DNA from: Candidatus Aminicenantes bacterium
Lineage (GTDB): Bacteria; Acidobacteriota; Aminicenantia; Aminicenantales; Saccharicenantaceae
Direction: 5' to 3'
Length of the DNA: 64,000 bases
NCBI GenBank assembly: GCA_963773685.1
Contig: CAVZBY010000005.1
Coordinates: 72,709 to 136,708, forward strand
A model generated the notes under the pieces. That model was not told the origin of the DNA. It saw nothing but the letters and a program-made list of their open reading frames with translations, and did no database searches. Of this stretch, positions 1,562 to 35,371 are shown in pieces. Each line of letters begins with the position of its first letter. Positions within the stretch are counted from its first letter, which is position 1. Made by a program: the position numbers and the translations under genes.

Positions 1562-2845
1562 TTACTTTTTCAGGGCGTTCCGGCAATCGACGAAGGCCCG
1601 CCCGGAAGCCCGGATCCGTTCCCAATCGTAGGCGGCATGATCGGTCACGATCATCACGCAATCCGCCTTCCGAAGGGTCGCGTCCGTCGGCTCGGCGAAC
1701 GGAACGTCGAGTCCGGCGGCGGCGAGCGAGGCCACGAACGGATCATGATAGCTGACGTCGGCGCCCAGCTTTTTCAGCAGCTTGATGATATCGAGCGCCG
1801 GGCTCTCGCGCAGGTCGTCGATATCGGGCTTGTAGGTCACCCCCAGGACCAGGACCCGGCTCCCGTTGACGGCCTTCTTCGCGGCGTTGAGGACGTCGAC
1901 GACCCTCTCGACCCAATAGGCCGGCATATGGCGGTTGATCTCCTCCGCCAGCTGGACGAACCGGGCGTTGTAATCGAGCGTTCTCAGCTTCCAGGAGAGA
2001 TATCCGGGATCGAGCGGGATGCAGTGGCCGCCGACCCCGGGGCCGGGGGTGAACTTCATGAAGCCGTACGGCTTGGTCGCGGCGGCCCCGATGACCTCCC
2101 AGGCGTCAAGGCCAAGCTTGTCGCACATGAGGAGGACCTCGTTGGCCAGCGCGATATTGACGGCCCGGAACGTGTTCTCGAGGAGCTTGGCCATTTCGGC
2201 CGCGGCGACGGAGCTGACCGGGACGGTCCTTTCGGTGACATGGGAATAGAGCGCCGTCGCGACCTCGAGGCAGGCCGGGGTGACGCCTCCGACGATCTTC
2301 GGGGTCGTCTTCAGGGTGAAGTCCTTGCGGCCGGGATCGGTGCGCTCGGGCGAGAAGGCCACGAAGACCTCCCGGCCCACGGCTAGGCCGCTCGCGGCGA
2401 CCTTGGGAAGGATGATCTCATCGGTCGTACCGGGGTAGGTCGTGCTCTCCAGGACGATGAGCATTCCGGGGTGGACGTGGCGGGCGACCATGTCGACGGC
2501 CGCGATCACGTAGGATAGGTCTGGATCGTGGGTCTTCGAAAGGGGGGTCGGAACGCAGATGGAGACGGCGTCGCAGCCGGCCAGAACGCCGAAATCCGTC
2601 GTCGCCTTCAATTTTCCCGAGGGGACCGTTTCTGCCAGATCGCCCGCCGGCACGTCGATGACATAGGAGCGGCCGGCGTTGAGCTCGGCGACCTTGCGCT
2701 CGACGACGTCGATGCCGAACGTCGGAAAGCCCGACCGGGCGAATCCCACGGCCAGGGGCAATCCGACGTATCCGAGCCCGATCACGGCGACACGGGCCTT
2801 GCGGGACTCGATCCGGGCTAAGAGATCCTTGCGTTCTTGACTCAT
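1562..2845 (-). CDS. nucleotide-sugar dehydrogenase (UDP-glucose/GDP-mannose dehydrogenase family; WbpA/WecC-like UDP-N-acetyl-hexosamine dehydrogenase)
   Basis: 427 aa with N-terminal VAVIGLGYVGLPLAV NAD fold, a GGHCIP catalytic-Cys motif and family-typical length. Confidence 0.9.
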   Translation of the reverse strand: MSQERKDLLARIESRKARVAVIGLGYVGLPLAVGFARSGFPTFGIDVVERKVAELNAGRSYVIDVPAGDLAETVPSGKLKATTDFGVLAGCDAVSICVPTPLSKTHDPDLSYVIAAVDMVARHVHPGMLIVLESTTYPGTTDEIILPKVAASGLAVGREVFVAFSPERTDPGRKDFTLKTTPKIVGGVTPACLEVATALYSHVTERTVPVSSVAAAEMAKLLENTFRAVNIALANEVLLMCDKLGLDAWEVIGAAATKPYGFMKFTPGPGVGGHCIPLDPGYLSWKLRTLDYNARFVQLAEEINRHMPAYWVERVVDVLNAAKKAVNGSRVLVLGVTYKPDIDDLRESPALDIIKLLKKLGADVSYHDPFVASLAAAGLDVPFAEPTDATLRKADCVMIVTDHAAYDWERIRASGRAFVDCRNALKK

Positions 2846-3507
2846 GGGACAACCTTTCTCGGCCTTCCTCGGGGCCTGACCGTGAGATTCCTGTTCAAGG
2901 AGCCCTCCAGGGCCCGGATGAACTCCCGGTCCCCGCAGGGCTTCCCCGTCTTCATATTCTTCCGGAGGGCTTCGATCGCCGCGGGATCGCCGGGGCCTCT
3001 CAGATAGGCGGCCCAGTCATCGACCTGGAGGTTGATCGGGCAGGGGGGCCGGAGGACGGGGTCGTCCGCGCCGGAGGAGTGGCTCCGGGCGCTCGACCAC
3101 GGATAGGCCGGGGCTTCATCGACGAGGCGCCAGCGGAGGGGGTTCGTTTCGACGAAGCGTACGGCCTCATAGGCGTGGGGCCCGTCGAGGATGGAGGAAT
3201 AGAAACGCCCCTGCCAGAGATGCCCACGGACGTTTCGTTTCAGGTTCATATACTGGGCGTAGCGCATGTGGAGGGCATTGAACGTCCGCCCCAGGCCGGT
3301 TTCCGTACGGGGAACGCAGATGTGATGGACGTGGTTCGGCATCAGGCAGTAGGCCAGTATCGTGACGCCGAACCGGCGGCCGTATTCGGCGAGCCATTCG
3401 AGATAGCGCTCGTAATCGCCGGCGTCCTCGAAGACGCGATGGCCATAGTTCCCGTACTGGAGCACGTGATGGGGGAGTCCCGGCGCGACCGTGCGTGATG
3501 TGCGCAT
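2842..3507 (-). CDS. IS200/IS605-like Y1 (HUH) transposase family protein, RAYT-like (COG1943-type), possibly inactive
   Basis: 221 aa with the HUH motif in LMPNHVHHICVP, then HLWQGRFYS and the C-terminal helix AVRFVETNPLRWRLV...YPWSSA. The stop overlaps the downstream dehydrogenase start as ATGA (2842-2845). Confidence 0.8.
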   Translation of the reverse strand: MRTSRTVAPGLPHHVLQYGNYGHRVFEDAGDYERYLEWLAEYGRRFGVTILAYCLMPNHVHHICVPRTETGLGRTFNALHMRYAQYMNLKRNVRGHLWQGRFYSSILDGPHAYEAVRFVETNPLRWRLVDEAPAYPWSSARSHSSGADDPVLRPPCPINLQVDDWAAYLRGPGDPAAIEALRKNMKTGKPCGDREFIRALEGSLNRNLTVRPRGRPRKVVP

Positions 3508-31808: not shown

Positions 31809-34088
31809 GTGTCGCGATCGCTGGTCATCGTGGAATCGCCGGCCAAGGCGAAAACCATCAATCATTACCTGGGTTCGGGATACATCGTCAAGGCCTCCAT
31901 GGGCCATGTCCGGGACCTTCCCAAGAGCAAGATGGGGGTCGACGTCGAGCACGATTTCGCGCCCACCTACCAGGTCATCCCCGACAAGAAGAAGATCGTC
32001 GCCGAGCTGAAGAAGCTGGCCGCCGAGAGCGAGAGCATCATCCTGGCGGCCGACAACGACCGCGAAGGCGAGGCCATCTCCTGGCATCTCCGCGAGCTCA
32101 TCGGGGCCGAGAACCCGAAGGTCTTCCGGGCCGTCTTCAACGAGATCACCGAGGACGGCATCAAGAAGGCGTTCGAGCATCTCGGCGGGCTCGACATGCC
32201 CAAGATCGAGGCCCAGCAGACCCGGCGCATCCTCGACCGGCTCGTCGGATACCTCATCAGCCCGCTCCTCTGGAAGAAGATCGGCCGCGGCCTGAGCGCC
32301 GGCCGGGTCCAGTCGGTCGCCCTGCGGCTCATCTGCGACCGGGAGAAGGAGATCCGGGCCTTCGTCCCCGAGGAGTTCTGGAACGTCTCGGCCAGGCTCC
32401 GGGCGGCCAATCCGCCCGAGTTCAAGGCGGCTCTGGCGAAGATCGACGGCAAGAAGGCCAAGGTCGCGAACAAGGAGCAGGCCGACGCCGTCCTGGACGC
32501 CTGCAGGAAGGCGCCCTTCGTCCTCGAGGCGATCAAGGTCGAGGAGAAGCGGAAGACGCCGCTCCCTCCCTACATCACGAGCTCGCTCCAGCAGGACGCG
32601 TTCCGCCTCCTCCACTATCCGGTCAAGAAGACGATGTTCGTCGCCCAGAAGCTCTACGAGGGGCTGGAGATCGGCGAGCTCGGACAGACGGGGCTCATCA
32701 CCTACATGAGGACCGATTCGTTCCGCATCGCGGACGAGGCGCGGGGCGCGGCCCGGTCGTACATCGAGCGGACCTGGTCCCCGGCCTACGTCCCGTCCAA
32801 GCCCAACGTCTACAAGAACAAGAAGAAGGCCCAGGACGCCCATGAGGCCATCCGCCCGGCTCACCTCGACCTGCCGCCCGACAAGGTCAAGGAATACCTC
32901 AAGAAAGAGGAATACGACCTCTACAAGCTCGTCTGGAACAGGTTCATCGCCTCCCAGATGGCCCCGGCCGTCGTCGAGGAGACCGACTTCGACATCCGGG
33001 CCGCGAACTATCTCTTCAAGGCCAAGGGCGAGGTCCTCAAGTTCGAGGGCTTCCTGGCCGTGGCCCCGAACGGGAACGGGGACATGGACATCCTGCCCAA
33101 GGCGTTCGAGGGGGAGGTCCTGGCGCTCGTCGACGGCGAGGCCGGCGTCGAGGCCAAGCAGAGCTTCACCCAGGGGCCCGCCCGGTACACCGAGGGCACG
33201 CTGGTCAAGGAGCTGGAGGCCAAGGGCATCGGCCGGCCGAGCACCTACGCGCCCATCATCGCGACCCTCCAGAACCGGGTCTATGTCTCCCGGGACAAGG
33301 GCAAGTTCATCCCGACGGATCTGGGCATGGTCGTCACGGAATTCCTGGTCACGCACTTCCCCGAGCTCCTGGACGTGACCTTCACGGCCCGGATGGAGGA
33401 GGAGCTCGACCAGATCGGCGACGGCGAGCGGCCCTGGCTCGAGAGCCTCCGGGAGTATTACGCCGTCCTCGAAAAGTCCCTGAAGGCGGGCGGCGAGGCC
33501 GAGGACCTCAAGAGGACCGGCATCCCCATCGAAGAGAAGTGCCCCAAGTGCGGCAAGGACATGGTCATCAAGTCGGGGCGCTTCGGCCGGTTCAAGGCCT
33601 GCTCCGGCTATCCGGAGTGCACCCACAAGGAGGCCCTGGTCAAGAAGGAGACGAAGCCGCTCGACGAGAAATGCCCCCAATGCGGCGCTCCCCTCGTCAT
33701 CAAGTTCGGCCGCTTCGGCTCGTTCATCGCCTGTTCCTCCTACCCGAAGTGCAAGTACATCCAGAAGGACAAGGTCGACACCGGGATCGCCTGCCCCGAG
33801 GGATGCGGCGGCACCCTCGTCCGCCGGAAGACGCGCCGGGGCAAGTACTTCTTCGGCTGCAGCCTTTACCCGAAGTGCAAGTACGCGACGTGGGACGAGC
33901 CGGTGGCCAAGGCCTGCCCGTTATGCGGGCGGGCGTCCATCCTGAAGAAGAACTCCATCAAGGGCGATCCCTACCTCTATTGTCCGAACGAAAAATGCAC
34001 CTACAAGGAGATCGTCCCGCGGGAGAAGCTCTGGGAGCAGGACAAGGAGGGGCCCTCCGCCCCGCCGGCCGATGAGAAAAGCGATTGA
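31809..34088 (+). CDS. topA: DNA topoisomerase I (type IA) with four C-terminal zinc ribbons
   Basis: LVIVESPAKAKTI TOPRIM start, DNDREGEAISWH, the active-site region ITYMRTDS, and four CxxC...CxxC ribbons at the C-terminus; 759 aa. Confidence 0.95.
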   Translation: MSRSLVIVESPAKAKTINHYLGSGYIVKASMGHVRDLPKSKMGVDVEHDFAPTYQVIPDKKKIVAELKKLAAESESIILAADNDREGEAISWHLRELIGAENPKVFRAVFNEITEDGIKKAFEHLGGLDMPKIEAQQTRRILDRLVGYLISPLLWKKIGRGLSAGRVQSVALRLICDREKEIRAFVPEEFWNVSARLRAANPPEFKAALAKIDGKKAKVANKEQADAVLDACRKAPFVLEAIKVEEKRKTPLPPYITSSLQQDAFRLLHYPVKKTMFVAQKLYEGLEIGELGQTGLITYMRTDSFRIADEARGAARSYIERTWSPAYVPSKPNVYKNKKKAQDAHEAIRPAHLDLPPDKVKEYLKKEEYDLYKLVWNRFIASQMAPAVVEETDFDIRAANYLFKAKGEVLKFEGFLAVAPNGNGDMDILPKAFEGEVLALVDGEAGVEAKQSFTQGPARYTEGTLVKELEAKGIGRPSTYAPIIATLQNRVYVSRDKGKFIPTDLGMVVTEFLVTHFPELLDVTFTARMEEELDQIGDGERPWLESLREYYAVLEKSLKAGGEAEDLKRTGIPIEEKCPKCGKDMVIKSGRFGRFKACSGYPECTHKEALVKKETKPLDEKCPQCGAPLVIKFGRFGSFIACSSYPKCKYIQKDKVDTGIACPEGCGGTLVRRKTRRGKYFFGCSLYPKCKYATWDEPVAKACPLCGRASILKKNSIKGDPYLYCPNEKCTYKEIVPREKLWEQDKEGPSAPPADEKSD

Positions 34089-34957
34089 GGAGTTTCTCGC
34101 CCATCTCGAACACGAGAGGAACGCCTCCCCCCATACCGTCGCCGCCTACGGCCGGGACCTCGGCCAGCTCGCCGCCTACCTCGATGAGGCCCGGGCCGGC
34201 TGGAAGACCGCCGATAACGTCGTCCTGCGCGGCTTCCTCGCCCGCCTTTACGAAGGCCGGCGGAAGAAAACGTCCATAGGCCGCAAGCTCGCGGCCATAC
34301 GCTCCTTCTATGATTATGCGGTGCGGCGGAAATGGCTCGCCGACGAATCCCGCCCGGGTCCTGGCGACCCCGCGCGCCGAGAAGCGGGTGCCGTCGTTCC
34401 TTTCCGAGGACGAGATGGCCCGATTCCTGGACCTCCCTTCCTCCGACCGTCCCCTCGACCTCAGGGACAAGGCCCTCCTCGAGCTCCTCTACGCTTCCGG
34501 GATCCGGGTCGGCGAGCTCGTGGCCATCGATCTCGCCGACGTGGGCTTCGCCGAGCGTCTCGTCCGGGTGAGAGGCAAGGGCAAGAAGGAGCGTCTTGTC
34601 CCGTTCGGCCGTTCGGCCGCGGCGTCGCTCGAGGCCTGGCGCCGGGTCCGGGTCGAAGGGCCGCGGGAGCGGGCCGACGCGGACGCCCTCTTCCTCAATT
34701 ACCGGGGAGGGCGGCTGACGTCGCGCTCCGTGGAACGGATCGTCGCGAAGTACATCCGGCGGACCGCCGTCGCCCGGCATATCAGCCCCCACTCGCTCCG
34801 CCATTCGTTCGCTTCGCATCTCCTCGGCCGCGGGGCCGATCTCCGGACCATCCAGGAGCTCCTCGGGCACGCGAGCCTCGCCACCACCCAGAAGTACACG
34901 CACATGGATCTCAAACAGCTCCTCGACGTCTATCGAAAAAGCCATCCGAGATCATAA
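34072..34957 (+). CDS. xerC: site-specific tyrosine recombinase XerC/XerD family, interrupted by a frameshift near 34344-34347
   Basis: N-terminal SAM-like domain MRKAIEEFLAHLEHERNASPHTVAAYGRDL... (ORF 34072-). The catalytic domain in ORF 34310-34957 has ...RVRGKGKKERLVP..., HSLRHSFASHLL and LLGHASLATTQKYTH. Lies in dprA-topA-xerC synteny. Confidence 0.9.
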
Positions 34958-35002
34958 GGTTAGGATCGCCTTCGAAGGACTCAGGGGCATCCCTTGTTAC
35001 GG

Positions 35003-35227
35003 CGCCGGCTGGGAATATAGCTCAGACGGGACGGCCTCGCTCCCGGTCGGAGGGCGCGGAGGCCGCCCCTTGACCCCAGACCCAGGAACCTCTTCGGGTT
35101 CCCCCATCGCAAGAGCGATGGGCCCCCTTCCCAACTGGGTTTACGGGGCGACGCTCCTTGCCCTATTTTGATGGTTGGCCTTTGATCCCGTCCGCTCGCC
35201 CGCTCCCGTCTGAGCCTCCAGCCGGCG
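35003..35227. other. 225-nt highly structured element (candidate ncRNA or MITE); strand undetermined
   Basis: The ends pair perfectly: CGCCGGCTGG/CCAGCCGGCG (10 bp) and GCTCAGACGGGA/TCCCGTCTGAGC (12 bp). Internal nested hairpins are GGAACC-tcttcg-GGTTCC, CCCATCGC-aaga-GCGATGGG and CCCAG...CTGGG, plus GCCCC...GGGGC enclosing them. Confidence 0.5.
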
Positions 35228-35346
35228 AATTCTAACGATATTCGGATATCCCCTGCGACCTTTTCGACGATTCCCGTTTTCCTTAAGAGCCGCTTAAGTT
35301 CGTTCGGGGACCGGGCAACGGCTTTTTACGCAACGAGACGACGTTG

Positions 35347-35371
35347 GAGGAGGGGGGAGGCCCCCCTCCTC
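35347..35371 (-). terminator. strong GC hairpin 10 nt downstream of the comEA stop (no U-tract)
   Basis: GAGGAGGGGGG-agg-CCCCCCTCCTC, a perfect 11-bp stem. Confidence 0.4.

Follow-up and report, generated by a model that had tools for sequence, protein, structure and literature searches.

The segment at positions 34963 to 35275 of the window, i.e., the 64,000-nucleotide stretch of Candidatus Aminicenantes DNA that was analyzed as a whole, is most probably a fossil copy of a nested foldback-type MITE, and thus non-coding mobile DNA and not an RNA gene. The element is layered, with a T-shaped core set within inverted-repeat shells that represent the ends of two other repeat families. Better-preserved relatives of the element have moved, and the window copy presumably arrived as they did; its mode of arrival is deduced from them because it has no duplication and its outer arms come from other families. 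It appears to be an ordinary kind of selfish DNA, of an undescribed family whose T-shaped center is unusually conserved, and we found no match to this family in Rfam or in the literature. An earlier note on this DNA had proposed that a 225-nt segment of the spacer between xerC and comEA (35003-35227) was either an ncRNA or a MITE. The MITE option gained the support of multiple copies, filled and empty sites, terminal inverted repeats (TIRs), 8-bp duplications, an absence of orientation bias and pairing limited to Watson-Crick pairs, whereas the ncRNA option gained nothing beyond covariation.

The palindrome proved wider than first described, since pairing reaches from about 34963 to about 35275. 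It lies between two convergent genes, coding for an XerC-type tyrosine recombinase on the left and, on the - strand, for a ComEA-like helix-hairpin-helix protein on the right. The only ORFs across the palindrome are off-frame read-throughs without family matches. The element is short (under ~500 bp), with a palindrome of 313 nt and a core of 115 nt. In a DNA fold, the region 34960-35280 forms one hairpin (-74.7 kcal/mol, z = -4.8), and 34975-34987 and 35250-35262 constitute an inverted repeat with 85% complementarity. The dense structure reported for the 225-nt segment was confirmed, as none of 200 shuffles folded as well as the RNA of the + strand (-124 kcal/mol, z = -7.2) or that of the - strand (-130.8 kcal/mol, z = -5.5). 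All the helices that had been named, i.e., the 10-bp and 12-bp terminal helices, GCCCC/GGGGC, CCCAG/CTGGG and the two tight hairpins, are present. As for the hairpin of roughly 40 nt also described, CGGCCTCGC...GCGGAGGCCG, its sequence is there, but it competes with the family-conserved pairing GGAGGCCGCCCC / GGGGCG..CUCC. The parts of the window copy are the following:

34962-34996: outer left arm ("module A"), GGTTAGGATCGCCTTCGAAGGACTCAGGGGCATCCC, 5 nt past the xerC stop codon
35003-35049: inner left shell, CGCCGGCTGG, 7-nt bulge, GCTCAGACGGGACGGCCTCGCTCCCGGTCGGAGGG; perfect helices of 10 and 12 bp with 35204-35227
35003-35012 / 35218-35227: outer helix, 10 bp, 100% complementary, CGCCGGCTGG / CCAGCCGGCG
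35020-35031 / 35204-35215: second helix, 12 bp, 100% complementary, GCTCAGACGGGA / TCCCGTCTGAGC
35050-35163: conserved core, a three-way-junction (T-shaped) palindromic module; score of 119.9 bits with the R1 covariance model
Core stems: P1 GGAGG/CUCC; P2 CGCCCC/GGGGCG; P3 GACCCCAG/CUGGGUU
Core hairpins: P4 GGAACC-UCUUCG-GGUUCC; P5 CCCAUCGC-AAGA-GCGAUGGG
Unpaired core stretch, 3' of P5: CCCCCUUCCCAA
35164-35227: inner right shell, with a degenerate interior (CTATTTTGATGGTTGGCC...) and the ends TCCCGTCTGAGC and CCAGCCGGCG
35243-35275: outer right arm, in which module A is inverted and has diverged (GGATATCCCCTGCGACCTTTTCGACGATTCC); it closes the 313-nt hairpin in the DNA fold

Module A pairs with 35243-35275 in the DNA fold. 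The outer arm of the window copy belongs to a family, GGATCGCC...GGGACATCCC, of which ~16 copies of the form GGATCGCC(TTCGA/GGCTC)AGGACTCRGGGACATCCC are present in the same genome and many more in its congeners. The sequence of the inner left shell is also found at C1:506646-506821, C10:86479-86710 and C1:296384-296523, and a repeat family of ~300 nt (L006:1672-1971) has it as its inverted ends. On the right, the homology of the inner shell to C1:506646 and C10:86479 extends to 35193. A perfect 11-bp G/C hairpin, GAGGAGGGGGG-AGG-CCCCCCTCCTC, is located at 35347-35371, 10 nt past the stop codon of the comEA-like gene. It has no T-tract, is kept in the genome G007, and possibly represents a terminator-like structure that is not part of the repeat.

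The segment had been described as single-copy, and a search of the whole genome had been suggested on the grounds that many copies would favor a MITE. We compared the 225 nt with the genome from which the window comes (G000; 3.42 Mb in 14 contigs, 84.8% complete) and obtained 45 matches, which revealed a modular element. The core (35050-35163) has about 17 copies with 70-94% identity, and both the left shell (35019-35050) and the stretch that follows xerC (34960-34994) recur separately elsewhere in the genome. An alignment of the 17 copies yielded a consensus structure, from which a covariance model (CM), R1, was built; it gave 27 core matches in G000. With 17 close and ~10 more distant copies of the core, and with outer parts that are repeated as well, the element is not single-copy. 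The consensus consists of a bulged closing helix (P1-P2-P3) and two tip hairpins, P4 (GGAACC / GGUUCC) and P5 (CCCRUCG / CGAYGGG), followed by an unpaired C-rich strand. At C11:558448-558513 and C11:1074455-1075051, G000 has a small hairpin repeat, GCCTCAGGCTT(T/C)AGCCTGAGC, where G007 has full cores, and at C11:558415-558463 only the first ~30-49 nt of the core are left.

Genomes other than G000 were MAGs of variable completeness. Of the 151 genomes sampled from the order to which G000 belongs, 75 contained the core, often in more than 20 copies and in many cases in at least about 24. Its frequency differed among families (31/44 genomes in f1, 16/20 in f7, 14/27 in f3 and 3/43 in f6), and none of 150 genomes from the rest of the phylum had it at E ≤ 1e-4. 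It was also detected in a second, unrelated order, that of the Elusimicrobia-titled MAG G317, in 7 of 61 genomes with 1-6 copies each, and five MAGs titled Elusimicrobia or Terriglobales contained 7-51 copies each. A pattern scan of one genome per species returned mostly records titled Candidatus Aminicenantes, Aminicenantales or Saccharicenans, together with several MAGs titled Elusimicrobia that came from independent studies. One record titled "Desulfaltia" and some titled "Eubacteriales" had coordinates and scores identical to those of genomes of G000's order; as record titles are unreliable for some MAGs, the second order was counted via genome handles. The patchy distribution fits horizontal spread. 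Searches for carriers among plasmids, phages and IMG/VR gave no match.

Filled and empty sites were found by comparing related genomes. At site L006, ~490 nt of repeats including a core copy are present between two genes in G000 and G007, and only a 15-18-nt spacer is found in G005 and G006. Several of the G007 copies sit where G000 has spacers of 22-94 nt. Because composite replacements distinguish the sites of G000 from those of G007, the exact junction or duplication of the core is unreadable at those sites. A second, better-preserved subfamily of G000 comprises 175-200-nt elements in which the core is central (e.g., C13:100079-100263 and C5:145761-145947), bounded by a TIR of 22-26 nt (GGTTCTTCTCCGGATTCCGGGG). 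The TIR pairs of this genome span 171-775 nt.

The preserved elements are flanked by repeating AT-rich 8-mers, such as AATTTTAA / GATTTTAA. Among 26 TIR pairs taken from several genomes, flanks of 8 nt matched at 5.19 of 8 positions on average, compared with 3.01 for mismatched controls, and 62% of the pairs but 9% of the controls matched at 6 or more positions. One copy in G105 has a perfect duplication, TATTATAA. In that genome, the same TIR also bounds ~310-340-nt MITEs with an unrelated interior. Conversely, the core of the family was found inside at least four different shells, and ends and centers are therefore interchangeable modules. The TIRs and the 8-bp AT-rich duplications of these relatives point to cut-and-paste transposition by a DDE transposase acting in trans. 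At the window copy, whose shells are not of the GGTTCTTCTCC type, no target-site duplication is visible, in agreement with the earlier note, and none is visible at the module-A pair on C10. Other arrangements of the same components were observed in G000. A 29-nt palindrome at positions 1533-1561 of the window (C5:74241-74269) consists of two MITE ends head to head (GGCTCTTCTCCGGAATCCGGAGAAGCCCC) and may be a minimal or collapsed element. At C1:537078-537333 and C5:289031-289394, a TIR-bounded core is interrupted by another repeat (...CTGACGGAGACACTGACATCCAG..CCCCTTTGAATTCCAAGGGGG...).

An 8-bp AT-rich target duplication is a trait of the ISL3 family (ISfinder), and the TIR start, GGYTCTTC, is also the start of ISL3 copies in related genomes (GGCTCTTCAGCC...). 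In its TIR start and its duplication, the TIR-bounded subfamily resembles ISL3-family elements; past the first 8-9 nt the TIRs differ. We looked for an autonomous partner in G000, where no TIR pair or solo TIR encloses or adjoins a transposase gene and the long ORFs adjacent to TIRs are unrelated to one another. Transposase domains of the ISL3, IS1595, IS256 and IS66 types were not found in G000, a result to be read against the facts that IS copies often remain unassembled and that this genome is 84.8% complete. The ISL3 transposase was not found in the genus of G000. In g6, a genus with the TIR, 20 of 21 genomes gave no ISL3 transposase either, and ISL3 is rare among the TIR-bearing genera. 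The transposase partner may have been lost or may not have been assembled.

The history of the window copy can be followed in G007, whose orthologous site contains the 421-nt spacer in full, at 89% identity. As the spacer is common to both genomes, the insertion is older than their split, and the copy, inserted before G000 and G007 diverged, is now drifting. In the outer stems, the two genomes differ by T.C and A.C oppositions that are not compensated and by the loss of 5 nt, which in the G007 orthologue affects the inner right shell, where uncompensated changes are also located. In the G000 core, P3 has lost 1 nt and P2 contains a C.A mismatch, neither of which is seen in G007 or in the family consensus. 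Changes of this kind mark a copy whose fold is no longer maintained by selection. The core is ~96% identical between G000 and G007 compared with 92% for xerC, the counts being small. If the window copy has any effect at present, it would be incidental, e.g., as a putative two-way transcription barrier or 3'-end stabilizer between the convergent xerC- and comEA-like genes. The xerC-like gene itself (34072-34957) is split over two frames in G000 near position 34340; the frame that starts at 34072 codes for the N-terminal SAM-like domain, and that of 34310-34957 for the catalytic domain. The G000 gene has a 1-nt insertion (CTCGCCGACG versus GTCG-CGACG) that the orthologue of G007, intact with 297 aa, does not have, and this represents either an assembly error or a pseudogene.

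A covariation analysis had been proposed, and covariation among the copies was indeed strong. In 86 diverse copies, 91.9% of cells were in standard pairs, compared with 67% in shuffles and 37-58% with slid partners, and both sides had changed in 591 cells versus 169 in shuffles. A second set of 45 copies agreed on the pairing covariation. The changes were nearly all from one Watson-Crick pair to another, with 1.3% G-U and 3.5% A-C. After removal of poorly aligned columns, the proportions were 95.9% Watson-Crick, 0.9% G-U, 1.9% A-C and 1.3% other, with G-U no more frequent than A-C or other mismatches, whichever strand was considered. Neither strand shows the wobble tolerance expected of RNA. 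Compensated point changes also occurred among close copies, e.g., GCCGCCCC/GGGGCGGC to GCCTCCCC/GGGGAGGC in C13:68260, showing that the covariation does not all result from the swapping of shells.

Covariation does not discriminate in favor of an RNA here because constraints at the DNA level explain it equally well. In the MITE model, the preserved relatives would be moved by cut-and-paste by a DDE transposase supplied in trans, and the hairpin and three-way junction would be maintained at the DNA level. Pairing might be kept through a restriction of propagation to foldable master copies or through mutual correction of the two arms; by either route, pairing would co-vary and yet stay Watson-Crick. 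The best-conserved stretch of the family is the unpaired CCCCCTCC that follows P5, along with the GGAACC/GGUUCC arm. The family is the reverse of the textbook MITE pattern, in that its center is conserved and its arms are variable.

Neither master-copy selection nor arm correction explains why unpaired bases are conserved, and a sequence-specific partner of the core is therefore possible. Judging from its conservation, the unpaired CCCCCTCC hints at a sequence-specific role beyond plain hairpin formation. One could accordingly imagine that the ~115-nt core is an independent functional module with a putative sequence-specific partner, rather than passive filling of a MITE. The partner would recognize the invariant GGAACC/GGUUCC arm and the unpaired CCCCCUCC, and the core would home to the centers of other palindromic repeats, which would account for its constant position at the tip of unrelated shells. 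Alternatively, the core might act as a folded single strand, of DNA or RNA, in a role conserved across two bacterial phyla. We regard this module hypothesis as unlikely.

That the core is a multi-copy structured ncRNA, i.e., an sRNA gene or a cis-acting RNA element of which the repeats are merely carriers, appears quite improbable. The covariation strongly supports the structure, the RNA fold has a z value of -7.2, the unpaired CCCCCTCC and CCC-GGAACC are highly conserved across subfamilies, and the core is present in several unrelated shells. However, G-U pairs, at 0.9-1.3%, are rarer than A-C mismatches, orthologous copies gather uncompensated changes, and 20-50 copies per genome are atypical for an RNA gene. 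The orientation of the copies relative to the neighboring genes, based on crude codon-model gene calls, also showed no bias. At 88 classifiable loci in other genomes, 18 copies were co-oriented and 26 anti-oriented with tandem genes, and 27 lay between convergent and 17 between divergent genes; the corresponding figures for G000 were 8, 5, 6 and 4. No gene recurred in the neighborhood beyond generic ones for histidine kinases, GT2 glycosyltransferases, epimerases and ABC ATPases. The xerC-comEA spacer contains no promoter-like site, and the candidate has no terminator. Neither tRNA nor tmRNA was detected, as the earlier note had said. The Rfam search that it had recommended matched no family: gathering scores were reached neither in the window nor at 20 loci that contain diverse copies, and at E ≤ 10 the only matches were chance ones to miRNA models.

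The element might instead have been adopted by its host, like BIME/REP or Correia sequences, as a DNA or transcript element that binds a nucleoid protein, blocks read-through from one convergent gene into the other or protects mRNA 3' ends. The copies are all intergenic, often 20-150 nt past a stop codon, and the window copy starts 5 nt past that of xerC, between convergent genes; the core has also diverged less than xerC, on the small counts given above. Nevertheless, insertion into AT-rich intergenic targets accounts for these facts as well. In addition, copies have been gained and lost between congeners, and the window copy has undergone changes that weaken its structure. We therefore consider host adoption very improbable.

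A REPIN-like mechanism, in which a RAYT or IS200-type Y1 (HUH) transposase would copy the repeat in the form of folded single-stranded DNA, is scarcely credible. Compensated stems in a hairpin-forming repeat are also a feature of REPINs (PMC3116915), and a Y1_Tnp protein of the IS200-like, RAYT type (221 aa) is encoded in the same window on the - strand (2842-3507). Its gene overlaps the end of a UDP-sugar dehydrogenase-like gene by 4 nt in a polysaccharide cluster and is not flanked by any of these repeats. Single Y1_Tnp genes of a similar kind are present in 127 of the 151 genomes of the order, so that the gene looks domesticated. Moreover, its occurrence does not match that of the element. 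The Y1_Tnp gene is missing from G025, a single-contig genome with at least 23 copies, and from G038 and G134, whereas the genera g9 and g20 have the gene but not the element. A link with RAYT and REPINs was thus rejected on gene context and co-occurrence, the latter test largely refuting this reading. The 8-bp target duplications of the TIR family also argue against it, since HUH single-strand transposition (IS200/IS605) is not known to make any. Finally, a fortuitous palindrome in GC-rich intergenic DNA, which the earlier note had kept as a fallback and which has nothing but the high G+C content in its favor, is dismissed, as 0 of 200 shuffles fold as well and hundreds of homologous copies exist across many genomes.

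The MITE reading places the element next to known prokaryotic MITEs that fold into hairpins, namely Correia/NEMIS of Neisseria, ERIC/IRU of enterobacteria, RUP and Nezha (PMC10969869, PMC3184786). Like them, the window family is small, non-coding, multi-copy and intergenic, has TIRs and stable stem-loops, uses AT-rich targets with short duplications that fade with age, and would depend on a transposase in trans. It has no sequence similarity to any of them. Unlike them, it has a conserved three-way-junction center with conserved unpaired bases, around which the arms vary or are swapped, and its core occurs in at least four different TIR shells and in two unrelated bacterial orders. With REPINs it shares interspersed hairpin repeats with compensated stems, dozens of copies, and mostly vertical inheritance within a lineage (PMC3116915, PMC3337134). 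It differs from REPINs in that its core is a three-way junction and not a REP doublet, in that it does not co-occur with Y1/RAYT, and in that its 8-bp duplications point to a DDE transposase. The mosaic units, in which the ends of one family surround the interior of another, are reminiscent of Tn3-derived TIMEs and of BIMEs (PMC4133298), but the TIRs of the family are unlike those of Tn3, and its duplications measure 8 bp and not 5 bp.

Recognition of the segment as a MITE removes a false ncRNA candidate. It also reveals that several interspersed families of palindromic repeats form a mosaic in the intergenic DNA of this uncultured lineage, and predictions of RNA motifs and terminators will be misled by them. 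Of specialist interest is a three-way-junction center with conserved unpaired bases that is kept across an order, recurs in a second, unrelated one and is carried by interchangeable transposon shells. If this center were a recognition element for some mobilizing enzyme, the spread of orphan MITEs in genomes that lack transposases would become easier to understand.

Two more multi-copy intergenic repeat families, of ~180 nt and ~110 nt, were observed at locus L002 (G000:C1:505146-508321), at its positions 1137-1317 and 1357-1466, respectively. Both are common to all congeners, and one of them is inverted at the orthologous site of G007.
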